Of a DNA stretch of 64,000 nt, positions 1-24,577 are shown in pieces. The notes beneath the pieces were generated by a model. The model made no database searches. It was not told where the DNA came from and saw only the letters and a list, made by a program, of their open reading frames with translations. The position numbers and the translations under genes are program-made. Numbering within the stretch: the stretch's first letter is position 1; each line of letters starts with the position of its first letter. The stretch is from NCBI GenBank assembly GCA_038727515.1, contig JAVYVS010000001.1, forward strand, positions 602,946 through 666,945. The letters run 5' to 3'. The DNA is from Candidatus Methanomethylicia archaeon. GTDB taxonomy: Archaea; Thermoproteota; Methanomethylicia; Culexarchaeales; Culexarchaeaceae.

Positions 1-11
1 AAAGATTTATT

Positions 12-1208
12 TTAGCATGGTATTGTTAAGCTATCTATATCCCTTGGATAAAATGTTACAATTTCAACTCCATCATCAGTTATTATTACGGTATCTGAAT
101 GTCTAAAACCGGCAAATCCAGGTATATATATTCCAGGTTCACATGAGAAAACCATACCTGGCTTTAAAATTGTTTGATCACCATCTTCAATCCATGGAGG
201 TTCATGTCCTTGGAGCCCAATACCATGACCAACCCTATGCAAAATGTATTCTGATGGTACACCTTCTTCTTTGAATACTTTAAAAGCAGCCTTATTTACA
301 TCACTACATTTAACTCCTGGTTTAAAAGCATCTAGAGAAGCTTGCTGAGCTTTCAACATTATATTAAAGTATTTGATTTGTTTATCATTTGGTTTTCCAA
401 CGATCATAGTTCTTTCAAGTTCAGAATTATACCCCCCAATTCTAGCACCAGCTCCAGTAACAAGGACATCACCTTCACGTATAACAATATTTGAAGCTAA
501 CATATGTGGATATGCAGAATAAACCCCTATTTGACCTCTAAAACCAGCTGAAGCTGGAAGCATAGTTCCAGGTTCAAATTCAGGTCCAAGAGCTTTAATC
601 ATAGCAAGTGAAGCTTCAAAACTAGCTCTAGCAGCAACTTCAATCTCTAAAGCTCCGGGATAAACATATTCCTGGAGAAGTTTATGAGCTAAATTACCCC
701 ACTTAGCACTTTCCCTTATAAGTGAAAGTTCTTCTTCATCCTTAATAATACGCATATCACTTATAATTTTCCCAAGATTTTCAATTTTAACAGTAGGTAA
801 TACTTCACCTAATGATGGCCCGACATAACCCATAATACCAGGATATCCAGGGGCATCTACAGCAATCTTTTTATCACCAAGTTTTAATTCTTCTAATCCC
901 CTCGCTAAAACTTTCATTGGATGTTCAACACCAGGATATTCAAAATAGACAATCCTCTTTTTAATATGTGGGACTCTAAATTTTGAATGATCTTCTTCAA
1001 GTCTTGGTATAAATAGTATAGGTTCATCATCCACTGGAAGTATTAGTGCAGTAGGCCTCTCAGTTGAAATTATCGTATATCCAACAAGATAGAAAACATT
1101 TAAAGGTGTGAATAAGATCATCGCTTTACACTCACGTTTTTCAAGTTCTTTACGAATATAATTCATCCTTTTCTCATGCGTCTTCCAACTAATAGCATAT
1201 CTACCCAT
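12..1208 (-). CDS. Xaa-Pro aminopeptidase / prolidase (peptidase M24B family)
   Basis: 398 aa; creatinase/prolidase-like N-terminal region followed by M24 pita-bread domain; C-terminal motif HRVGHGIGLQGHEPP typical of M24B metal-binding region. Confidence 0.8.
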   Translation of the reverse strand: MGRYAISWKTHEKRMNYIRKELEKRECKAMILFTPLNVFYLVGYTIISTERPTALILPVDDEPILFIPRLEEDHSKFRVPHIKKRIVYFEYPGVEHPMKVLARGLEELKLGDKKIAVDAPGYPGIMGYVGPSLGEVLPTVKIENLGKIISDMRIIKDEEELSLIRESAKWGNLAHKLLQEYVYPGALEIEVAARASFEASLAMIKALGPEFEPGTMLPASAGFRGQIGVYSAYPHMLASNIVIREGDVLVTGAGARIGGYNSELERTMIVGKPNDKQIKYFNIMLKAQQASLDAFKPGVKCSDVNKAAFKVFKEEGVPSEYILHRVGHGIGLQGHEPPWIEDGDQTILKPGMVFSCEPGIYIPGFAGFRHSDTVIITDDGVEIVTFYPRDIDSLTIPC

Positions 1209-1277
1209 AAAAACACCAAATAAAACTAGATAAATAGAGTATAAAGCTTTAACTAAATAATAAATAAAACTATAAGA

Positions 1278-1856
1278 TTAATCAAGTTCTTCAGGTGAAT
1301 AAGACATTTTACGAAGCTTATCTATACTATCTTTAAAACCGCTTACAAGTAAAAGAATTCCTCCAGTAAGAGTAAAATCTTCCGGAGGATCTTTAATCCA
1401 TCTCTCCCCTGGAGATCTAACAGCCAATACATTAATCCCCATTTCATCAAGTTCAAGCTCAGATAGAGATTTACCATCAATTTCACTTCCTTTACCAACT
1501 CTAATTAGAGAAACACCTTCTTCAGTTTCACTGAAAACCATACTTAATATTGGATGAGATTTAAATCCCCTCATAACAACGTCAGCTATTGAGGCAGCAG
1601 CATCAGAAATAGATTCCATACATAAACTAAGCCTAATAACACCTAAAATGTTATGAATATCTCCGTCAATATCCTTAGCCTTTAAACATTCCAATTCTAA
1701 ATCTGTATGTAATCTATCCACTTCTTCCTCCATAGCTAAAACTTCATGGGCAATACTCTGATCATTGTATAAAAGGGAGTAATAAGCTAAATCAATCATA
1801 GACCTAGACATATCCATTATCTTAATAAGCTTCTCCTCAATAACATTAAAATTCAT
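1278..1856 (-). CDS. PhoU-like domain + TrkA-C (RCK_C) regulatory protein
   Basis: 192 aa; N-terminal helical PhoU-like segment, C-terminal TrkA-C-like block (GKSLSELELDEMGINVLAVRSPGERWI...LLLVSG); paralog of upstream gene with 4-nt ATGA-type overlap. Confidence 0.5.
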   Translation of the reverse strand: MNFNVIEEKLIKIMDMSRSMIDLAYYSLLYNDQSIAHEVLAMEEEVDRLHTDLELECLKAKDIDGDIHNILGVIRLSLCMESISDAAASIADVVMRGFKSHPILSMVFSETEEGVSLIRVGKGSEIDGKSLSELELDEMGINVLAVRSPGERWIKDPPEDFTLTGGILLLVSGFKDSIDKLRKMSYSPEELD

Positions 1857-2482
1857 TTTTCAAACACCTCCCTCAAATCTTTAATTTCACCAGAAACAAC
1901 CTTACTAAAATTATTTAATCCATCCATAGAACCCTTAACTATGAGAACATCATTTTCAAGAATAACCTCGGAATCTTCAGGATCAATGATTATTTTAGAT
2001 CCTCTTCTAATAGCTAAAATATATATTCCAAAATAAACATCTAGATTTAAATCAGCTAATCTTTTCCCAATAAGTATAGAATCTTTATTTGGAATAAATC
2101 GTCTATATTGAGGTTCAACTTTACTTAAAGCATTCTTTAAACATGAAGGTATACCAAGCTTAAGTCTAATAACTTGAACTATATCAGCAGCAGCATTAGA
2201 AATATTATCAATAGCTATTGCAAGTTTCATAACTCCTGCAAGAGTTTCAGCATCTTCTAAATCTCTAACGGCAATAGATGCACTAGCCCAAAGTTCATAC
2301 AATAAAGAATCTATATCCCTTTCAAATTCTAAAACTTCTTCAGCTAGATCAGCATCATCAAAAAACACTGAAGCATAAGCTAAATCCACTATTAAACCAC
2401 ATAGATTCTTCATATCAACTAAAACTTCCTTAACAGGACGAGGCCTATGTCTCCAAATATTAGAATGAGTATGCTCACCCAT
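1853..2482 (-). CDS. PhoU-like domain + TrkA-C (RCK_C) regulatory protein (paralog)
   Basis: 209 aa; TrkA-C-like C-terminus (LIGKRLADLNLDVYFGIYILAIRRGSKIIIDPEDSEVILENDVLIVKGS); tandem paralog of 1278..1856; immediately upstream of MgtE-like transporter gene. Confidence 0.55.
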   Translation of the reverse strand: MGEHTHSNIWRHRPRPVKEVLVDMKNLCGLIVDLAYASVFFDDADLAEEVLEFERDIDSLLYELWASASIAVRDLEDAETLAGVMKLAIAIDNISNAAADIVQVIRLKLGIPSCLKNALSKVEPQYRRFIPNKDSILIGKRLADLNLDVYFGIYILAIRRGSKIIIDPEDSEVILENDVLIVKGSMDGLNNFSKVVSGEIKDLREVFEK

Positions 2483-13605: not shown

Positions 13606-14283
13606 CTAATCCAAATAAACTTCAACTTCTACTTCGCTTCCATCCATAAGATTTAAAGCATTTCTAATCTTTATTGGAGCTAGAATTTCAATTACATCAT
13701 CACCATAATGAGTTCTTTCAACCAAAATTAATGCACAATCAATACTATTAATTTTAGCCTTAAAACATTTAGCACCACCATAACTCCTATAACCATTGGA
13801 AAAACCAGTAATAACTATACCACATAAAGTTTTTAAAATCCTTTTAACTTCAATATCGGAGGGGCCCTTCAATCTTAAATTTAAAGTTCCAGGATATGGA
13901 TCAAAACCAAGTTTCTCAATGAATTGCTTCCTATAATAGGGTATGCTTGTGTAAAATGCACCTTCACCTAAACCACTAAAAACAACACCCTTAATTTTAA
14001 ATTTCCTCGGAAATTCTCCAAATATCTTACCTAAATTAACATATAATTCCCTTAAAACTGAAAGCCCTTTGTCTGTAACTTTAACTTTTTGACCTTTACC
14101 ATGAACGATCCGATGAATAAATCCAAGTTTTTCAAGTTCAATAAGCCATCTTGAAACACTTTGCTGAGATACCCCTAAATAATCTTTAATAACTACAGTT
14201 TTAACATCTATAAAATCATTTACAGAACCCATAATTGCTAGTTGATAAAGTAGTATTAGTAATCTACCCTTCATAAACACCAA
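13606..14283 (-). CDS. ribK: CTP-dependent riboflavin kinase (archaeal RibK) with N-terminal winged-helix domain
   Basis: 225 aa; N-terminal HTH (YLGVSQQSVSRWLIELEKLGFIHR) fused to archaeal riboflavin kinase domain (GEGAFYTSIPYYRKQFIEKLGFDPYPGTLNLRL), as in MJ0056-type enzymes. Confidence 0.75.
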   Translation of the reverse strand: MVFMKGRLLILLYQLAIMGSVNDFIDVKTVVIKDYLGVSQQSVSRWLIELEKLGFIHRIVHGKGQKVKVTDKGLSVLRELYVNLGKIFGEFPRKFKIKGVVFSGLGEGAFYTSIPYYRKQFIEKLGFDPYPGTLNLRLKGPSDIEVKRILKTLCGIVITGFSNGYRSYGGAKCFKAKINSIDCALILVERTHYGDDVIEILAPIKIRNALNLMDGSEVEVEVYLD

Positions 14284-14328
14284 ATAAAATATGAAAAAGA
14301 GAAAATAAAAGTATAGGTTTCTTATCGA

Positions 14329-16800
14329 TCAATGTAGAATGGCATTGAATAGAAATTTAAATGTTGCTGGAGTTTGACATCTACTATAAACTGGAAATCC
14401 AAATAAAACGATCTTTCCATAACCCTTAGGAATACAAGCTACGGCAGCAGCATCATAAAGATATTTTTCACCTAAAATCCAACCACTTAAAAGTGGATTC
14501 GTACTCGGATATTTAGCTACCACATACTCTTCTGGACATTTAAAAGCTGGACTATTTATAAACATGATTGCCGAATCAATATCCATACCAAAACCTATTG
14601 GATGCTTATTATTCACTATGACCCTCAAAATGGACCCTGGAATATAAAATTCCGTTGGTTTTAGATTCTCAAGTACATTTACAACTGGAATCCACATACG
14701 TTTAATGGGAAGCTCACAGCTCTCATCAATTGTTATAAGTTTACCACCATTCAAAACAAATTCATTTAAATTTTCAACACCCACATCACCAATACCACCA
14801 GCATATTCTGGAGGAACCTCTTCAACACTCCTACCATTAACAATATTATTGAGATTTTGACCAGCAATTATTATAACATCAAATCTAGAATTTAAATTGC
14901 CATTTCTAATTTCATTATTCCCAATACTCATATATGGTATATTAAACATTTCGAATAGAAACCTAGCCCAACCTTCATCAGCATTTGGAATCCAATTCCT
15001 ATATAAACCGATTCTAGGAATTTTGAGACTTATCATATTTACATTTGTTAAATTATCACAAGCATATAGTACCACTGGAAGACCTTTTAGGAAGCTGGGA
15101 AGTTTCTCCTTCAATTTATCATCATTTTCAAATACAAAAGCTCCTGGTGGAAGTTTAACATTAGAAATACTAATTTCATTGGGAATTCTATAAACTTTAA
15201 AATTGTTTAATAGAAGATTAATGGCAAGTTTATATGAAGCATTAGACTCTGGTGAAGCCAGTAGATATTTTGCATTTCTATCGCCAATTATAATTCCATC
15301 TGGATATTTAATCTCCTTTAACTCAACGCTTTTAACATTAAATTTACCATTAACTGTATAAACTTTAACATTCATCATTAATGGAAGTGTCCAAGCAGTT
15401 AAATCATATGGTCTTTTAGGCGGTTGTTCTGGGGATTCTCTTAAATCTGGGTATACTTGTACTTCCAGTAATGTTTTTGCATATCTACCATAAGGTTGAG
15501 CAAAATATATTATGAAGGATCCCTTTGGAAATTCTATTCCATCAGCAATGAAAGATTCTTCAGCCACGTTGATTTTAACCAATCCACGATGTAAAATATC
15601 TAAAAGCCAGTACAAATTATATAAATCCTTTTGATTTGGAGGGATTATAAAGGCGAATGGCCCCCCTTCAGGTTTTAAAGCACGTTTAAATATTTCTATG
15701 GTATTTGCAATCCAAAATCTCCTATACTTAGCAGCATTTCTAAGACATGCAATAACAGCGGCAAGTTCATAATCAATAATGTCTCTTAACCTCCAAATAC
15801 CACCACGCCATGGATATGGATTATTCCATCTTTGTTTAGATGGATCTAAACCAATAACAGGTCTTAAATCTTGAGGCTTTATTTCAATGGGAGTAGCAAT
15901 TTTAACGCTTGCAGCTTCAGAAAGTATTCTTATACCACCATGATAATGCTGATAAGCTCTAGCAGGCGTCCAAGCATCGTATATAGCATAGCAAGCTACA
16001 CCCTTAAATCCTCTACCAATAAGTTCATTAGCCATTGAAGAACCCATAAATACTATTTCTTGTTGAAGTATGGGATCTACATTAGGATCTATTGGGTCAA
16101 GATATGGTGGAAGCCAAAGTCTAGGTCCATATGGACCCATCTGATGTAAATCATATACTATTTGTGGATGCCAACGATTATGAACTTTTTCAACGACAAG
16201 TCTAGTTTCAATTAGATTCAACATAAACCAATCTCTATTATTATCATGACCAGCATATTTATGGTAAAGCCATGGTGGAGCTGAACCTTCATATTTAGTA
16301 CCTAAAGTCTTATTATACCAATTTACAACCATTACATGACCATCTGGATTAAGTGATGGAATTAAGAGTAATATTACATTATCGAGGATTTCTTTAAATT
16401 CATCAGAATCTTCTGTTGCAAGTTTATAGAGAAGTTCTATACTCATCTGTGATGCAGCAATCTCGGTGGAATGAATACTACAAGTAACAAGTACAATTGT
16501 TTTACCTTCATCTATAAGTTTTGAAATTTCATTTTCACTAAGACCTTCAGGATTATGAAGCTTTTCCTGTATACTCCTATAATAATCCAATTTCTTCAAA
16601 TTTTCAGATGAAGAAATTATAGCTAGAATCATATCATTGCCTTCAGTGGTTTTACCCAAGAATTCCACTATAACTCTATCTGAGCGTTCTCCAACAATTT
16701 TAAAATACTCTAAAATTTGATTCCAGTTGGCAAGTTTCCTATCTTCTCCAACTTTAAAACCAAGAAATTCTTCAGGGGATGGAATACCCTTTAAACCCAT
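14329..16800 (-). CDS. M14 family zinc carboxypeptidase-like protein (cytosolic, large)
   Basis: M14 motifs HSTEIAAS (HxxE), SLNPDGH, NNRDW; the annotated ORF start at 16878 overlaps tRNA-Gln; trimmed to the internal ATG (MGLKGIPSPEEF) at 16800. Confidence 0.6.
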   Translation of the reverse strand: MGLKGIPSPEEFLGFKVGEDRKLANWNQILEYFKIVGERSDRVIVEFLGKTTEGNDMILAIISSSENLKKLDYYRSIQEKLHNPEGLSENEISKLIDEGKTIVLVTCSIHSTEIAASQMSIELLYKLATEDSDEFKEILDNVILLLIPSLNPDGHVMVVNWYNKTLGTKYEGSAPPWLYHKYAGHDNNRDWFMLNLIETRLVVEKVHNRWHPQIVYDLHQMGPYGPRLWLPPYLDPIDPNVDPILQQEIVFMGSSMANELIGRGFKGVACYAIYDAWTPARAYQHYHGGIRILSEAASVKIATPIEIKPQDLRPVIGLDPSKQRWNNPYPWRGGIWRLRDIIDYELAAVIACLRNAAKYRRFWIANTIEIFKRALKPEGGPFAFIIPPNQKDLYNLYWLLDILHRGLVKINVAEESFIADGIEFPKGSFIIYFAQPYGRYAKTLLEVQVYPDLRESPEQPPKRPYDLTAWTLPLMMNVKVYTVNGKFNVKSVELKEIKYPDGIIIGDRNAKYLLASPESNASYKLAINLLLNNFKVYRIPNEISISNVKLPPGAFVFENDDKLKEKLPSFLKGLPVVLYACDNLTNVNMISLKIPRIGLYRNWIPNADEGWARFLFEMFNIPYMSIGNNEIRNGNLNSRFDVIIIAGQNLNNIVNGRSVEEVPPEYAGGIGDVGVENLNEFVLNGGKLITIDESCELPIKRMWIPVVNVLENLKPTEFYIPGSILRVIVNNKHPIGFGMDIDSAIMFINSPAFKCPEEYVVAKYPSTNPLLSGWILGEKYLYDAAAVACIPKGYGKIVLFGFPVYSRCQTPATFKFLFNAILH

Positions 16801-16836
16801 GAAATTAACTATGTATAGAACATTGTTTAAATTTAT

Positions 16837-16912
16837 TGGTAGCCGGGGGGAGATTCGAACTCCCGTCGACGGGGCCAAAGCCCGCCATGCTTGGCCGCTA
16901 CACCACCCGGCT
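16837..16912 (-). tRNA. tRNA-Gln (anticodon UUG), CCA encoded
   Basis: Reverse complement reads AGCCGGGTGGTGTAGCGGCCAAGCATGGCGGGCTTTGGCCCCGTCGACGGGAGTTCGAATCTCCCCCCGGCTACCA: 7-bp acceptor stem AGCCGGG/CCCGGCT, T-arm GGGAG-TTCGAAT-CTCCC, anticodon stem GCGGG/CCCGT with loop CTTTGGC (U33, anticodon TTG, G37); resembles crenarchaeal tRNA-Gln. Confidence 0.85.
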
Positions 16913-17130: not shown

Positions 17131-18084
<954 letters not shown>

Positions 18085-19276
18085 CTTTCTTCATCTTACT
18101 AACAGCAATTCTAGTTGTAACCTTCAAATCTTTAACATCCATCTTCCTAACTTCTAAGAGACCTTTATTTATACATTCTTCAAAAAGCTTCTCACCAAAA
18201 TCGCTTCTAATTATAACAGTAGTCCAACCCTTAGGGGAATCTAAACCACCTAAAGATATATCTGCTAATCTAGCTGTGAAATCGCTACAATAATCACAAG
18301 ATTTACGTCCATAATCTTCTATCTCTTTTAAACTAATGGATAATAGGATTTCATCTCCAGATTTAACTGTAAGATTCCCCTCAGAAATATCAGTTTTAGT
18401 TATCTTATCTAAATTAATCCCCTTACTAACAAGGAAGTTTTTAAATAATGATGAGTAATAGAATGTTTTTGAACAGAATAATCCTAACGCAAATTTAACT
18501 GGTAAACCATATTTTAAAGCTCCATATTCATGGTATTGCATCTTCCTTAAACCAGTAATTTGACATCCTACACCGACAAATCCTACACTTTTAGTTTCAA
18601 ATTCATCTATAGCGGCAGTTAAAGCTTTCAGATTTGGGCTTGCAGTATACTTAGATCCAGCGCATTCCAATACATCCCTCCTATTAAATGCGACTTTCGG
18701 TTTAGGTTTAAATGGTTCTAAAGAATCTAAACCAGATAAAATAGCGCAATCAATAATTCCAGACTCCAATGCATATATAATTATGGTGGATGCTACACCA
18801 CCATCTTGAGCATACTTCAAAATCTCATTGTCAGTAGATCTAGCTGCATAAACACTCTTCAAATAACCTAGAGATTCATGTTTAAAACTAGATGTAAAAA
18901 TCTTTGAAGAAACACTTTGAACATCAAATGTTGTGTGTGGACATTGAGCATAACAAAAACCACAACCAATACATCTACCAACAATACTAGGTTTTTCATC
19001 TTTTTCATCAATAGCTTTAACGGGACATACACCAATACATGCACCACAAAAAGAACATCTATCAGCTCTAATAACTTCACTAAATAAATGACCCCATATC
19101 TTAACTTTAAGTCCCAGAGACCCATCAGGCTTTATCCTAACGCCCAAAATCATCCACCACAAAAATAAGATATCATAAAAACAATTAATAAGGGTTATCA
19201 TAGATTCAATGGAAAAATAAATATATTAGATTTGAGAGACTTTCACGTTATCTAGATAGTTAAAAGTGGATGTAAA

Positions 19277-21055
19277 ATGATAGAAGACTTCCAAGTGAAA
19301 GTTGCAAAATACGTAATGGAATGGGGAGAATGGATAGAGAAATGTGAATTGCTATTACTACTTGATACTGAAAAAGATAAAATTAAGATTTATATGGATA
19401 AATTGTTAAGCCTTCAAAATGATGATGGAGGATTTCCACGTAATTGGATTAAAGGATACTCCTCAGGAATAATCGAAACTGCAAAAGTTATAGAATTGGC
19501 TTCTAAAATAGGTTTAAAAAATGATGAAAGAATAGAAAGAGCAATAAAATTCTTAATTAAAAATCAGCTTGAGAATGGAGCGTGGATGGAAGAATCATTA
19601 GAATATGAAGATAATTCAAATGATGTAATAGTTTCAGCATATGCATTAAAAGCTATAGCGACAGCTGGTATTAAGGGGGAAGTTGTAGATAAATGTGTAA
19701 GATACTTATTGGAAAGTCAAAGAGATGATGGATTATGGCCAAAAACAAAGGCAGGAATAAATCCAGATTTGGAAGCTTCTGGAAGAGTTTTAATAGCATT
19801 GCATGAAACAAAAAATAAGATTGCTACAAAAGCCATTAAAAATGGATTTGAAAGTTTAATGGAAGTATTTATTGAAAAATCAACGAAAGAATGGGATACA
19901 CTCTCAGAAGATATACTACCAATAATTGAAGCAATATCAATTATACAACCAAAGAAAAATACAGCTGCCAGGAAAATAATAGATAGCTATATAAAAGGTG
20001 AAAAATGGGAATTTCAAGATAGAAGAAGTGAAAATACAAACAACCTATTAAACTTAATTAGGGTAATGGCTTTAACAAACATCATAAATAAAGATAAAGT
20101 TAAAGAGGAAATAAACAAATTATTGGAATTAAAATTAAATCTCAAGAGGATTATAGAGAAATTTGAAAATGAAGCCAAAGAGATATTACTATCAAAATTT
20201 GAAAATATAGGGATTAAGAGGAATGATCCTCAGAAGAAGATATTGCTTGGATTATTCATATACTCACTATTAGAACAATTTTTCTGGGCTGCAGAATATG
20301 AACCGCAAACAGAATTTATTGGTGTAATAGATAGAGTTGGAACACTAGATAAAATTGAGAACTACACAGACTATGAAAAGATTAGAAAAGCATTATTTAG
20401 GAGTAAAGCTCTTACTGGAGTTGCAAAAAAGAAGAAGGAGGATGCTGCAAAAAGTATAACGTTATTTGCTAGATTCCTAATACAAAATAATGAAATAAAT
20501 GTATTTGAAGAATTCGTCAAAAAACTAATTGAATTTACATTATTTGAAATAGCGCCAACACTTTCAGGGGCAACAACAGCAAGAAAGCTTGGTCTACTAC
20601 TAAGAAACTACACTAAAAATGAAATTGAAATGTACAAATTATTTGAATCATTAAAATTATCACTGGAATGCTTCCCATCAATAGGATCTAAGATATCAAC
20701 ATTATATCCATACTACACTATATGGATATATAACATATGGAATGAAGTGAGAAAATACATAGAAACTCCAATAGACTGGAATACAGTAAAAACATATATA
20801 AGTATAGGCTTAAGCAATTTAACATTAAAAGATCTTAGGAAGGATCCGAGAAGAGCATCTAAAGCAATAAATAAGCTATCTGAAGAACTATTTCCAGAGG
20901 ATAAAGCAAAAATATCATTACTGTGGATAGCTGGAAGAGAATGGTGTACAAAACCATATAAATGCTATGGGCATATGGGCAGAAAATGCTGGTTCTATGA
21001 TATTTGTATGAGGAGGATGAAAGATGAAGAAAGAAGAAAAAAGAATATGGGATAA
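19277..21055 (+). CDS. hypothetical protein: N-terminal prenyltransferase/terpene-cyclase-like alpha-toroid repeats, helical middle, C-terminal Cys4 module
   Basis: 592 aa; repeats LLSLQNDDGGFPRNW, LIKNQLENGAWMEE, LLESQRDDGLWPKT (QxxDGGF/W type); C-terminus EELFPEDKAKISLLWIAGREWCTKPYKCYGHMGRKCWFYDIC; paralogous over the C-terminal ~300 aa to the next ORF. Confidence 0.35.
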   Translation: MIEDFQVKVAKYVMEWGEWIEKCELLLLLDTEKDKIKIYMDKLLSLQNDDGGFPRNWIKGYSSGIIETAKVIELASKIGLKNDERIERAIKFLIKNQLENGAWMEESLEYEDNSNDVIVSAYALKAIATAGIKGEVVDKCVRYLLESQRDDGLWPKTKAGINPDLEASGRVLIALHETKNKIATKAIKNGFESLMEVFIEKSTKEWDTLSEDILPIIEAISIIQPKKNTAARKIIDSYIKGEKWEFQDRRSENTNNLLNLIRVMALTNIINKDKVKEEINKLLELKLNLKRIIEKFENEAKEILLSKFENIGIKRNDPQKKILLGLFIYSLLEQFFWAAEYEPQTEFIGVIDRVGTLDKIENYTDYEKIRKALFRSKALTGVAKKKKEDAAKSITLFARFLIQNNEINVFEEFVKKLIEFTLFEIAPTLSGATTARKLGLLLRNYTKNEIEMYKLFESLKLSLECFPSIGSKISTLYPYYTIWIYNIWNEVRKYIETPIDWNTVKTYISIGLSNLTLKDLRKDPRRASKAINKLSEELFPEDKAKISLLWIAGREWCTKPYKCYGHMGRKCWFYDICMRRMKDEERRKKNMG

Positions 21056-21974
21056 GTATCTAACAAAATTTTCTGCAAAAATCGAGGGGGGACTCTTAAA
21101 AGATCTAAGAAATGAAATGGATAAGAGAAGTGAAATTGTAAAAACACATTACAAAAGATTGCTAGATAATTTGAACATTACAACAGAAGATACTAGGAAT
21201 ATGCTTATGGATATATTCGTTTACTCAGTATTTGATAAATATAATTGGAAACTAAGAAGTAAAGGTGAAACTCCATCAAAAGAATATAAGAGATTCAAAA
21301 GTGTAGTAACGAAATTTGATTATTATCTTGATGAAGATCTATTATACTATGCCATAAAAGATGAATGCAATGAACTTAGCAATATAAATAAAACTGATGT
21401 AGAAAGAATAATAAAATCAATGTCATACCTAGCTCAAGGATTAGCTAACATAGAAAACTTCGAATTTATAAATTTTGCAGAATCTCTAAGGAGACATATA
21501 ATGTTCAATGTTTCAAAGGATCTACCAGAAAAAATATACAAAATAAAATCTTACTATTATGGTTTGCTTACCATGACTAAGATCAAAGACAATTTAACAG
21601 CTATAGATTCATTGAAAACATCAATATTATGTCTCCCCATAGGAGAGCAACAAATAACAAACATGTACCTATACCTACTATTAATAGTTTTGAATGTATG
21701 GAATGTAAGTGGAAAAACATATGTATACTCACCATTAGACAATGGAGTCTCAGAAGTCCTATTAAGCCTTGGATTAACAGATAAAAGAATAGAAGACATG
21801 GAATATGAAAATACGGGATACAAAGCATACAAAATAATAAGTGAAATGTTATTTCCAGAGGAACCATCAAAAATGATGGTTACTAGGGCCGTAGCAGAAA
21901 GATGGTGTTACCAAAAGAAGATTAAAATATGTGATGAATGTTGGTTTAACAATGTATGCCCAAAGGAATATTAA
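21024..21974 (+). CDS. hypothetical protein, paralog of C-terminal region of 19277..21055, C-terminal Cys4 module
   Basis: 316 aa; shares blocks with upstream gene (LSLGLTDKRIEDM vs ISIGLSNLTLKDLRK; EMLFPEEPSKMMVTRAVAERWC vs EELFPEDKAKISLLWIAGREWC); C-terminus WCYQKKIKICDECWFNNVC (C-x7-C-x2-C-x5-C). Confidence 0.35.
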   Translation: MKKEEKRIWDKYLTKFSAKIEGGLLKDLRNEMDKRSEIVKTHYKRLLDNLNITTEDTRNMLMDIFVYSVFDKYNWKLRSKGETPSKEYKRFKSVVTKFDYYLDEDLLYYAIKDECNELSNINKTDVERIIKSMSYLAQGLANIENFEFINFAESLRRHIMFNVSKDLPEKIYKIKSYYYGLLTMTKIKDNLTAIDSLKTSILCLPIGEQQITNMYLYLLLIVLNVWNVSGKTYVYSPLDNGVSEVLLSLGLTDKRIEDMEYENTGYKAYKIISEMLFPEEPSKMMVTRAVAERWCYQKKIKICDECWFNNVCPKEY

Positions 21975-23231
21975 TTACTCACCAAACTTCTTAGCTTTAG
22001 ATGAGTAACTTAAAAGTATTGGAAGTAAATCTAAACCTCTAATACGTCCAAGTCCACCCTTTAAACAATCTCTTTCACTAAACTTATTAACATCATCATT
22101 AACAATATATGGGCCATAAATAAGTACTGGAACTGGATCTCCGGAATGATCCCTAATAATTATTGGAGAACAGTGATCAGCTGTAATTGATAAATAGACT
22201 TCATACTTGTTTAACCCTTCAATAATCCTTCCAACCATTTCATCCACAGCTTCAATAAATCTAATTTTCTCTTTAATCAATCCATCATGACTAGCAGTAT
22301 CAGCACCTTTAACATGCAAAAATATGAAATCATATTTCTCGGCAGCTTTAACAGCTGCTTCAGCCTTCGCCATCAAATTACTATTTAAACCGCCAGTAGC
22401 ACCTTCAACATTTAGAACATCTAAACCAACAGCTTTTGCAACACCTTTAATCAATGGAACTCCTGCAATACATACACCCTTAATACCATAACGTTCTTCA
22501 AATTTCTTAATATTTGGAAGAGTACCAGCACCTCTACAAAGAATTATATTTGCAGGTTTATGACCTCTGGAAATCCTAGATAAATTAGCTGGGTGAGAAG
22601 ATAGTACTTTAAAACTTTTAATGGTAAATTCATTTAGTATATTGGCTGTCCTTATAGCTTCAGGTGTATTAGATAAAGGTTTTGAAGTAAGGATTTTAAC
22701 ATTCTCCTTTTCAGGATCAGTATCACTAACATCTTTTGAAAGCCCAGATCCCCTTAAAACTAAAACACCCCTATGCTCTATACCGTGTTTAAATATTATT
22801 GAAACATTTGGAGAAGATTCAATTTTAATATCATTAATAGCTTCAGCAAGTAAATCTCCTTCAACAAGATATCTACCAGCCCTTCTATCTAAAACTATTA
22901 AATCATCATTTACTGTAGCAAAATTAGCTCTAAAAGCTATATCTCCAGGAAATAAATCTAAACCTAAACCAAGAGCTTCAAAAGCCCCTCTACCAGTATA
23001 ACATTCATATGGGTCATAACCAAGCAAAGCAAGATTTGCAGGCGCACTACCGGGAGGGATACCTACTCCAATAACATCTATAATACCAGTCAGTCCATTT
23101 CTAGTCAATTCATCAATTGTGGGTTTATTTGCAACTTCAAGAGGAGTCTTATAGTTAAGTTCTGGTATTGCTCTATCACCCATACCATCAACAACAATTA
23201 ATATTATGCGTTTTTCAACCATAGAGATCAT
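21975..23231 (-). CDS. apgM: 2,3-bisphosphoglycerate-independent phosphoglycerate mutase, archaeal type (apgM)
   Basis: 418 aa; archaeal iPGM hallmarks: N-terminal ILIVVDGMGDR metal site, C-terminal ITADHCSP. Confidence 0.85.
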   Translation of the reverse strand: MISMVEKRIILIVVDGMGDRAIPELNYKTPLEVANKPTIDELTRNGLTGIIDVIGVGIPPGSAPANLALLGYDPYECYTGRGAFEALGLGLDLFPGDIAFRANFATVNDDLIVLDRRAGRYLVEGDLLAEAINDIKIESSPNVSIIFKHGIEHRGVLVLRGSGLSKDVSDTDPEKENVKILTSKPLSNTPEAIRTANILNEFTIKSFKVLSSHPANLSRISRGHKPANIILCRGAGTLPNIKKFEERYGIKGVCIAGVPLIKGVAKAVGLDVLNVEGATGGLNSNLMAKAEAAVKAAEKYDFIFLHVKGADTASHDGLIKEKIRFIEAVDEMVGRIIEGLNKYEVYLSITADHCSPIIIRDHSGDPVPVLIYGPYIVNDDVNKFSERDCLKGGLGRIRGLDLLPILLSYSSKAKKFGE

Positions 23232-23257: not shown

Positions 23258-24577
23258 TTAATATTTATGTTTGTAAATAAAGTTTGAAATACACTCCTTG
23301 AGATCAGGCTTTCCAATTTCAGCGAGTTCAAAACTTACCATTGTTGATGGTTTAGCTATTTTGATAAATCTTCTTAAATCAGTGGGTGTAGCTATAACAA
23401 TGCTATCACAATCAGCATTATTTATTGTAGCTTCAAGTTCTAAAAGTTGATCTCTATTATAACCTAGTGCTGGAATTGAGAGGAGATCGTTTTCCTCAAC
23501 AACTTTCTTAATTGAACCAATAGCACATGTTTTTGGTGAAATAATTTCAGAAGCCCCAAACTTTTTAGCAGCAATATATCCAGCACCAAATCTTAAATCT
23601 CCATGGAGTAATGTAGGTCCATCCTCAATAGTTAATACACGTTTACCCTTAATTACATTGGGATCATCAACATAAACTTCTGAAGCAGCTTTAACTATGA
23701 TTGAATTTGGATTTATAGACTTAATATTCTTTTCAACGATTTTAACACTTTCATCATCAACAACATTAACTTTATTGATAACAACAATGTCAGCCATTCT
23801 AACATTAACTTCACCTGGGAAATATTTAACTTCATGTCCAATTCTCAAAGGATCTACAACTACGATTAATAGATGTGGTTTAAAGAAGGGGAAATCATTG
23901 TTTCCACCATCCCAAACTATTATTTCAGCTTCAGCTTCAGCATGTTTCAATATTAATTCATAATCAACACCAGCATAAACAATATAACCTCTACGTATAT
24001 GAGGTTCATATTCTTCCTTCTCTTCGATTGTACAATTATATCGTTCTAAATCTTCTATTTTCTCAAATCTCTGTATTCTTTGAGCTTTTAAATCACCATA
24101 GGGCATTGGATGTCTTACAACAACAAATTTAACATTAAATTCCTTTAGAATATTACAAACACGTCTTGTAACAGTACTTTTACCAGCACCAGTTCTAGCA
24201 GCACATATAGCAATAACAGGTTTACTGGATTCAAGCATAGTATCCCTTGGACCTAGAAGTCTAAAAGATGCACCACAACTCATAGCTATAGATGCCATAT
24301 GCATTACATGTTCATGAGAAACATCGCTATAAGAGAAAACAACTTCATCTACATTAAACTTCTTAATTAAATTTGGAAGTTCAGATTCATGATATATTGG
24401 TATACCATTTGGATAGAGTGGCCCAGACAATTCTGGTGGATATAATCTACCTGCGATACCCGGTATTTGAGTAGCTGTAAAAGCTACAACTCTATAATTT
24501 GGATTATTCCTAAAGAATACATTGAAATTGTGGAAATCCCTTCCAGCAGCACCCATAATAATAACATTTCTAACCAT
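23258..24577 (-). CDS. cyclic 2,3-diphosphoglycerate synthetase-like P-loop protein
   Basis: 439 aa; Rossmann-like N-terminus (IIMGAAGRDFHNFN), Walker A AARTGAGKST; overall resembles cPGS-family proteins; directly adjacent to apgM on same strand; family assignment from memory, unverified. Confidence 0.45.
   Translation of the reverse strand: MVRNVIIMGAAGRDFHNFNVFFRNNPNYRVVAFTATQIPGIAGRLYPPELSGPLYPNGIPIYHESELPNLIKKFNVDEVVFSYSDVSHEHVMHMASIAMSCGASFRLLGPRDTMLESSKPVIAICAARTGAGKSTVTRRVCNILKEFNVKFVVVRHPMPYGDLKAQRIQRFEKIEDLERYNCTIEEKEEYEPHIRRGYIVYAGVDYELILKHAEAEAEIIVWDGGNNDFPFFKPHLLIVVVDPLRIGHEVKYFPGEVNVRMADIVVINKVNVVDDESVKIVEKNIKSINPNSIIVKAASEVYVDDPNVIKGKRVLTIEDGPTLLHGDLRFGAGYIAAKKFGASEIISPKTCAIGSIKKVVEENDLLSIPALGYNRDQLLELEATINNADCDSIVIATPTDLRRFIKIAKPSTMVSFELAEIGKPDLKECISNFIYKHKY

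Follow-up and report, generated by a model that had tools for sequence, protein, structure and literature searches.

What do two overlapping genes encode when one joins a terpene cyclase-type toroid to a cysteine-rich helical domain and the other carries the helical domain alone? This question was raised by a 64,000-nucleotide stretch of DNA from a Candidatus Methanomethylicia archaeon (contig JAVYVS010000001.1), which is AT-rich (about 31% GC) and is referred to here as the window. The two genes, open reading frame A (ORF A) and ORF B, belong to a family whose members are annotated publicly as "terpene cyclase/mutase family protein" or "hypothetical protein." On balance, and with moderate confidence, we favored the explanation that the two proteins make up, one subunit each, a highly divergent, EndoIII-like base-excision module restricted to the Thermoproteota. 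The broader assignment, that both proteins are homologous to the HhH-GPD glycosylases with an iron-sulfur (Fe-S) cluster loop, was judged from sequence to be very likely.

The earlier note on this DNA, made from the letters alone, had proposed a tandem paralog pair in which the shorter ORF lacks the toroid but is homologous to the helical region of the longer protein. A BLASTP comparison bore this out: residues 308 to 577 of ORF A aligned with residues 47 to 312 of ORF B at 25% identity over 274 aa (E = 6e-22), and ORF B consisted of the helical domain only. The C-terminal strings that had been quoted for the two proteins were also correct, and a protein identical to ORF B is on record from a "Candidatus Methanomethylicia archaeon" metagenome-assembled genome. 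The note had raised the prospect that ORF B is a frameshifted remnant. This was ruled out because ORF B has full-length orthologues, down to 45% identity, and these always lie beside a long-form gene.

The arrangement of the two genes was informative as well. A Shine-Dalgarno-like GGAGG lies within the 3' end of ORF A, at a 7-nucleotide (nt) spacing from the ATG of ORF B. A close junction of the long and short genes recurs in orthologous loci, with overlaps of 26 to 59 nt, 11 nt, or 32 nt or a gap of 4 nt. We infer that the translation of ORF A and ORF B is coupled; the gene overlap and the GGAGG inside ORF A suggest that the two proteins are made together in equal amounts and join in a heteromeric complex.

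To place the pair in its family, we used a HMMER scan of 1.84 billion representatives with the family profile, and it yielded 34 members of a long form (447 to 612 aa) and a short form (267 to 332 aa). When the large database was searched with the broad alignment A4, the matches listed were from the close clade only, and a related-locus search with alignment A2 reached Culexarchaeia only. The family was rare and was confined to Thermoproteota, and its named members were from Culexarchaeia/Methanomethylicia and from metagenome-assembled genomes (MAGs) labeled "Thermoprotei archaeon." The nearest species-level relatives were Ca. Culexarchaeum and Ca. Culexmicrobium (Culexarchaeia), and the orthologues of ORF A fell into 14 clusters.

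A neighbor-joining tree was built from the shared domain of 22 long-form and 25 short-form sequences. In it, the two forms were reciprocally monophyletic, the nearest neighbor belonged to the same class in 47 of 47 cases, and the topologies of the long- and short-form partners mirrored each other. The reciprocal monophyly and the mirrored topologies therefore indicated one ancient duplication followed by co-divergence. Loci that showed both genes had exactly one long and one short form. The two genes overlapped or abutted in Culexarchaeia and in loci L008, L010, and L017; in L006/7 and L009, they shared a strand but were separated by 2 to 4 kb. A 269-aa gene that follows the short form in L006 was considered as a third paralog and proved not to be one. 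In locus L018 (GCA_015520395.1, 6001-6870), a short form with no long form within 6 kb was found beside CdvA/Vps4 cell-division genes.

The identity of the helical domain was the central question. Single-sequence searches with both proteins gave no match to this domain in Pfam, NCBIfam, PADLOC, or the PDB sequences, and a profile of Culexarchaeia alone (A2) found no match in the PDB. Homology to EndoIII became visible only once distant short forms had joined the profile. Specifically, the profile of 22 short forms retrieved Bacillus stearothermophilus EndoIII (1orn) as its first PDB match (E = 1.2e-4), followed by ROS1, Deinococcus radiodurans EndoIII-3, MutY, and Mig. In the 1orn alignment, the short-form hairpin fell on LPGVGRKTANVV, the P-I-D motif fell on AVDTHVERVSKRLGF, and the four cysteines fell on the EndoIII cluster ligands. 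Similar results were obtained when the short forms were aligned by hhalign with a canonical Nth from the L008 genome (95.3% probability, E = 2.2e-8; hairpin, Asp, and four cysteines aligned). The long-form domains aligned with the same Nth in the same register (43% probability, E = 2.5e-4), and the ORF A domain gave a weak, in-register match to D. radiodurans EndoIII-3. Thus, when the suggestion that the helical domain might resemble HhH glycosylases was followed up, the answer was positive.

The results also indicated that the family had not been characterized previously. The helical domain had no match to a characterized family in Pfam or NCBIfam. The two-gene architecture, which the earlier note had not recognized as a described family, was found in no domain library or paper, and our literature search turned up no account of a toroid fused to a glycosylase, of HhH-GPD paralogs that occur in pairs, or of the ORF A/ORF B family. 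What is new is the family and its architecture; the HhH-GPD/Fe-S-loop superfamily itself is known. Weak matches to DUF2400 (PF09674) were observed in 6 of the 22 short forms over the Asp-motif region (best E = 3.9e-4, 17.7 bits versus a gathering threshold of 25), and this suggests at the sequence level that DUF2400 is distant superfamily kin of the short forms. ORF A and ORF B had no DUF2400 match in the Pfam scan.

Next, we examined the residues expected at an EndoIII-type active site. In the alignments with Nth and 1orn, the hairpins CFPSIGSK of ORF A and CLPIGEQQ of ORF B fell on LPGVG(Y/R)K, and the hairpin Pro was nearly invariant across the family. In EndoIII, a Lys is found two residues past the second Gly of the hairpin. 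ORF A has this Lys (K472, invariant among Culexarchaeia long forms), and ORF B has Q210 in its place and therefore no Schiff-base lysine. D500 of ORF A and D239 of ORF B aligned with the Asp of the VDTH motif of Nth/EndoIII.

The distribution of these residues differed among lineages. At the Lys and Asp positions, respectively, the Culexarchaeia long forms have K and D, and the short forms have Q, H, or Y and D (E in L015). The long forms of L008 and L010 also have K and D, with R and D in the L008 short form and S and F in the L010 short form. L006 has T and D in the long form and R and D in the short form; L009 has F and S in the long form and R and E in the short form. In L017, the long form has D and T, and it is the short form that has K and D. 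Hence, no pair observed lacks an acidic catalytic residue in both of its members, and the Lys/Asp dyad may occupy either subunit. Across seven lineages, the pattern is suggestive: it is what would be expected if the enzyme had two subunits and required an active site in one of them or in both.

Taken together, these sequence comparisons indicate that the pair is probably a translationally coupled, heteromeric, two-subunit [4Fe-4S] DNA glycosylase/apurinic-apyrimidinic (AP) lyase. In such an enzyme, each HhH-GPD domain would bind a [4Fe-4S] cluster, with the basic loop touching the DNA backbone. The HhH hairpin would bind DNA, and a damaged or modified base would be flipped into a pocket beside the conserved Asp. 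ORF A, with K472 and D500, would be a bifunctional glycosylase/AP-lyase that performs base removal and beta-lysis via a lysine Schiff base, and ORF B, which has D239 but a Gln in place of the Lys, would either be monofunctional or serve chiefly as a structural DNA-binding partner. We infer the complex from the gene overlap and Shine-Dalgarno sequence, the co-divergence, and the complementary residues. We assume that the toroid binds, or forms a scaffold for, a ligand or partner.

Several observations weigh against this explanation. Monomers are the rule among HhH-GPD glycosylases. Several distant members have lost the catalytic Asp; in one short-form subclade (P0037, P0039, P0041, and P0045), Thr takes its place, and this subclade is solitary in L018. 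Neither ORF A nor ORF B matches a Pfam or NCBIfam HhH-GPD model; PF00730 gave no match to either protein, and only 1 of the 22 short forms matched it, at E = 0.12. The long-form profile by itself reached EndoIII only at E = 2.7. The alignment with EndoIII was limited to the C-terminal 100 to 150 residues or so, which left about 150 N-terminal residues of the domain with no assigned counterpart. In addition, Foldseek found no significant match in the PDB (the best relevant match was Pa-AGOG, E = 1.7). The AlphaFold2 (AF2) model of ORF A had a pLDDT of 73.5, and confidence was low at the Cys-rich C termini of both proteins, so that the cluster geometry was not modeled. Finally, the C-x5-C-x7-C-x5-C spacing in the ORF A long form differs from the C-x6-C-x2-C-x5-C of canonical EndoIII.

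Some of these observations would fit a non-catalytic [4Fe-4S] DNA-binding or redox-sensing complex, in which the HhH-GPD scaffolds have lost or are losing activity and serve a structural or regulatory role. Consistent with this idea, the Asp is replaced in four long forms (P0046, P0051, P0055, and P0056) and five short forms (P0037, P0039, P0040, P0041, and P0045), the Lys is not conserved across the family, and the family is extremely divergent from active families and has no Pfam match. Furthermore, a canonical Nth is still present in pair-bearing genomes; in L008, a 229-aa protein with the Pfam HhH-GPD domain and C-x6-C-x2-C-x5-C spacing is encoded about 5 kb from the pair (14130-14816, minus strand), and therefore the pair is no replacement for EndoIII there. 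However, K472 and D500 of ORF A are invariant in the window's own clade, where ORF B keeps an acidic residue (D; E in L015). The retention of at least one acidic catalytic residue by each pair, with the dyad switched to the other subunit in L017, looks like selection for at least one active site. Moreover, Sis-HhH-GPD (SiRe_0278) of Saccharolobus islandicus, a recently characterized, atypical, bifunctional HhH-GPD glycosylase with an Fe-S loop, shows that such enzymes can be active without the canonical Asp, which can thus be dispensable (PMC11754123). We therefore regarded a non-catalytic complex as unlikely. Sis-HhH-GPD resembles the pair in its Fe-S loop and comes from the same phylum, but it is a MagIII/MpgII-like, single-gene protein of about 220 aa that carries a standard HhH-GPD signature and lacks a toroid. 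It was rejected as a match because it belongs to a different family (PMC11754123).

Another explanation is that the pair acts on a small molecule, as a nucleoside or nucleotide N-glycosidase in the salvage or turnover of modified bases. This activity would be like that of QNG1/DUF2419, and the toroid would bind the substrate or a carrier. We considered this slightly less probable still. The likeness to QNG1, which acts on a nucleotide and not on DNA, is in fold only: DUF2419 in the Pfam scan and 7ugk/7u07 in the PDB profile searches gave no match to the ORF A/ORF B family, and the sequence profiles retrieved EndoIII, MutY, and ROS1 but never QNG1. The cysteines of the Cys4 loop fall on the cluster ligands of EndoIII, and QNG1 is not known to have such an Fe-S cluster loop. 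In addition, the loop and the domain are strongly basic, which would suit nucleic acid binding, and ORF A carries the EndoIII-type Lys. The pair is also distinct from the classical DNA glycosylases that it resembles. Compared to EndoIII (Nth)/NTHL1, it shows about 10% identity and no PF00730 match, and its domain is about 300 aa rather than about 210 aa, with about 150 unassigned N-terminal residues; its genes are linked paralogs, one has a toroid, and the long-form Cys spacing is non-canonical. Unlike MutY/MUTYH, ORF A and ORF B have no NUDIX-like C-terminal domain and no sign of 8-oxoG:A specificity.

The Cys4 modules raised the question of which metal is bound. The earlier note had likened them to the EndoIII/MutY 4Fe-4S loop, and they did align with that loop residue for residue. 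The C-x7-C-x2-C-x5-C spacing that it had given for both proteins held for ORF B but not for ORF A, in which Cys 1, 3, and 4 aligned with the Nth cluster ligands by hhalign. The four loop cysteines were invariant across the 22 short forms, and the spacing in all short forms was C-x(4-7)-C-x2-C-x5-C; the canonical 6-2-5 spacing was the commonest and was found in most distant short forms. The ORF B loop is Lys-rich (YQKKIKI). A fifth conserved cysteine (C203 of ORF B and C465 of ORF A) was rejected as a cluster ligand, since its conservation is limited to the close clade. The idea that the modules bind zinc, as a structural ribbon or linchpin, draws on the C-x(3-5)-C-x(6-11)-C-x5-C spacing of all long forms, which departs from 6-2-5, and on the lack of confident AF2 geometry at the long-form Cys loop. 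On the other hand, the short forms have canonical spacing and align with EndoIII ligand for ligand, and both forms share the x5 between the last two cysteines, with a W/P-rich segment ahead of it. We thus found zinc binding to be improbable overall; the long form is where it would be most plausible.

The remaining part of the pair is the toroid of ORF A. An alpha-toroid with QW-type repeats had been predicted at the N terminus, and we found a single complete (alpha/alpha)6 toroid with repeats at residues 47 (QNDDGGF), 97 (QLENGAW), and 148 (QRDDGLW). It matched squalene-hopene cyclase among the PDB sequences (E = 2.4e-10), and the Pfam models SQHop_cyclase_C/N were marginally over their cut-offs. 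The scores for the NCBIfam cyclase models TIGR01787 (42 bits versus a cut-off of 322.7) and TIGR01507 (33.6 versus 431.1) and for the prenyltransferase family PF00432 (17.1 bits versus a gathering threshold of 26.5) were too low. The DxDD, DDxxD, and CGEQ motifs were absent from the toroid, and no D.DD was found in the whole of ORF A. The notion, in line with the public annotation, that ORF A acts as a terpene cyclase or a prenyltransferase, with its C-terminal domain and ORF B as accessory Fe-S proteins for redox steps in the chemistry of isoprenoids or lipids, possibly tied to the neighboring FrhB-like F420/Fe-S protein, draws on the toroid matches but is very improbable given these missing catalytic motifs. 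ORF A differs from single-domain class II terpene cyclases (drimenyl diphosphate synthase and MstE), complement TED, and prenyltransferase beta subunits in that it lacks DxDD, DDxxD, and the thioester motif and in that its toroid is joined to a glycosylase-type domain. The fusion is ancestral, since all distant long forms keep the toroid.

Returning to the two-subunit base-excision module, a more specific version can be put forward tentatively. ORF A and ORF B may form an obligate heterodimer of two EndoIII-derived [4Fe-4S] subunits, with catalysis in one and recognition or strand engagement in the other, and the toroid cavity may read a bulky, hydrophobic, or lineage-specific modification of DNA (or RNA) that no known glycosylase handles. 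The features of the pair and its immediate neighbors are listed in Table 1.

Table 1. Positions in the window of the ORF A/ORF B pair, its sequence features, and adjacent genes
Feature	Position	Strand	Details
FrhB-like gene	18050-19201	-	N-terminal 2x[4Fe-4S] ferredoxin domain
ORF A, long paralog	19277-21055	+	592 aa; toroid and C-terminal HhH-GPD/Fe-S-loop domain; from ORF list
Toroid of ORF A	19277-20140	+	about residues 1-288; single complete (alpha/alpha)6; three QxxDG[GA][WF]-type repeats; isoelectric point (pI) 5.5, acidic
Divergent HhH-GPD glycosylase-like domain of ORF A	20141-21052	+	residues 289-592; pI 9.4, basic
HhH hairpin of ORF A	20669-20701	+	C465-FPSIGSK-IST; hhalign: CFPSIGSKISTLY on ALPGVGYKTADIM of canonical Nth
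K472 of ORF A	20690-20692	+	position of EndoIII Schiff-base Lys (E. coli K120); aligned with Nth Lys
Catalytic-Asp motif of ORF A	20765-20812	+	TPIDWNTVKTYISIGL; aligned with LPVDTHIRRLALRLG of Nth (hhalign) and MPVDTHMERAAKRLEL of EndoIII-3
D500 of ORF A	20774-20776	+	equivalent of EndoIII D138 (E. coli); alignment and conservation table
Variant Cys4 loop of ORF A	20945-21007	+	C557-x5-C563-x7-C571-x5-C577; Cys spacing survey
GGAGG, Shine-Dalgarno-like	21012-21016	+	within ORF A 3' end; 7-nt spacer to ORF B ATG; read from sequence
Overlap of ORF A end and ORF B start	21024-21055	+	32 nt
ORF B, short paralog	21024-21974	+	316 aa; HhH-GPD/Fe-S-loop domain only; from ORF list
HhH hairpin of ORF B	21630-21662	+	C203-LPIGEQQ-ITN; aligned with LPGVGYKTADIM (Nth) and LPGVGRKTANVV (1orn)
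Catalytic-Asp motif of ORF B	21729-21776	+	SPLDNGVSEVLLSLGL; aligned with PVDTHIRRLALRLG (Nth) and AVDTHVERVSKRLGF (1orn)
D239 of ORF B	21738-21740	+	catalytic-Asp position; invariant in alignments A1/A2
Predicted Fe-S cluster loop of ORF B	21906-21959	+	C295-x7-C303-x2-C306-x5-C312; four Cys aligned with EndoIII cluster ligands
ApgM phosphoglycerate mutase	21975-23231	-	confirmed neighbor
P-loop protein	23258-24577	-	439 aa; weak cobW-domain match only; no NCBIfam family

The surroundings of the pair in the window were of a housekeeping type: ThyX, ThiC, riboflavin kinase, M14 peptidases, TFB, the FrhB-like protein, the pair, ApgM, the P-loop protein, DUF92, and ThiD-ThiN. A reading of the locus as a defense system was rejected on the basis of these surroundings and the absence of a PADLOC match. 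The pair had been described as lying between an FrhB-like gene and glycolytic genes; the FrhB-like gene and ApgM were confirmed, but the next gene encodes the P-loop protein and is not demonstrably glycolytic. The FrhB-like protein scored under the equivalog cut-offs for FrhB (260 versus 269 bits) and FpoF (231 versus 331.5). Conservation of the neighborhood also proved to be partial. The order TFB, FrhB-like, ORF A, ORF B, and ApgM was conserved across Culexarchaeia, but distant members had other neighbors, so this setting reflects lineage synteny and is not a functional clue, and a general functional linkage of the pair to FrhB/ApgM was rejected. The FrhB-like gene was always divergently adjacent to ORF A, in Culexarchaeia only, a group described as non-methanogenic generalists. 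An unannotated gene of 438 to 487 aa, matched by position and length, was found at the same ApgM-adjacent position in every Culexarchaeia locus examined.

In the distant loci, a RimK-like ATP-grasp gene was located divergently and directly upstream of the long form in L006 (11853-12764), L008 (5357-6253), and L009 (7045-7926). These are three separate "Thermoprotei" lineages, and the gene sits where Culexarchaeia have the FrhB-like gene; it is a possible recurring partner. Genes for ribosomal proteins L6 and L40e were near the pair in L008 and L017. A KaiC/RadA-like ATPase gene (PF06745 and DUF7125) was found downstream of the long form, adjacent to it in L006 (14690-16415), past one opposite-strand gene in L009 (10827-12451), and about 6 kb away in the Culexarchaeia locus L001 (16204-17028); a methyltransferase gene followed it in L006 and L009. 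Two further observations were made. The window has a single tRNA, tRNA-Gln(TTG) (16837-16912, minus strand), which overlaps the 5' end of the 849-aa M14 peptidase ORF (14329-16878), and the real start of the peptidase must therefore be downstream of the listed one. In the "Thermoprotei" MAG of L006/L007, the topoisomerase VI subunit A gene (1-2083, minus strand) contains an intein (Intein_splicing and LAGLIDADG match).

Few DNA repair enzymes have been studied as thoroughly as the HhH-GPD/Fe-S glycosylases, which are seen as monomers of a single chain with a small number of accessory domains. The family described here is an HhH-GPD branch that has diverged too far for domain libraries to detect, and for this reason public annotation says terpene cyclase or hypothetical protein; the misleading terpene cyclase annotation is now corrected. 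The two genes have been linked since before the divergence of these Thermoproteota lineages, and this lasting linkage, together with the complementary retention of catalytic residues, implies a two-subunit enzyme. The fusion of an (alpha/alpha)6 toroid to a glycosylase-type domain has no precedent that we could find, and the long-form loop bears on how far Fe-S cluster loops tolerate altered Cys spacing. For biochemists who study base-excision repair, the pair is a tractable new target from thermophiles. If the toroid reads a ligand or a lesion, it would represent a new recognition principle, and the pair would be the first glycosylase with a terpene cyclase-type barrel as its lesion- or ligand-recognition module.

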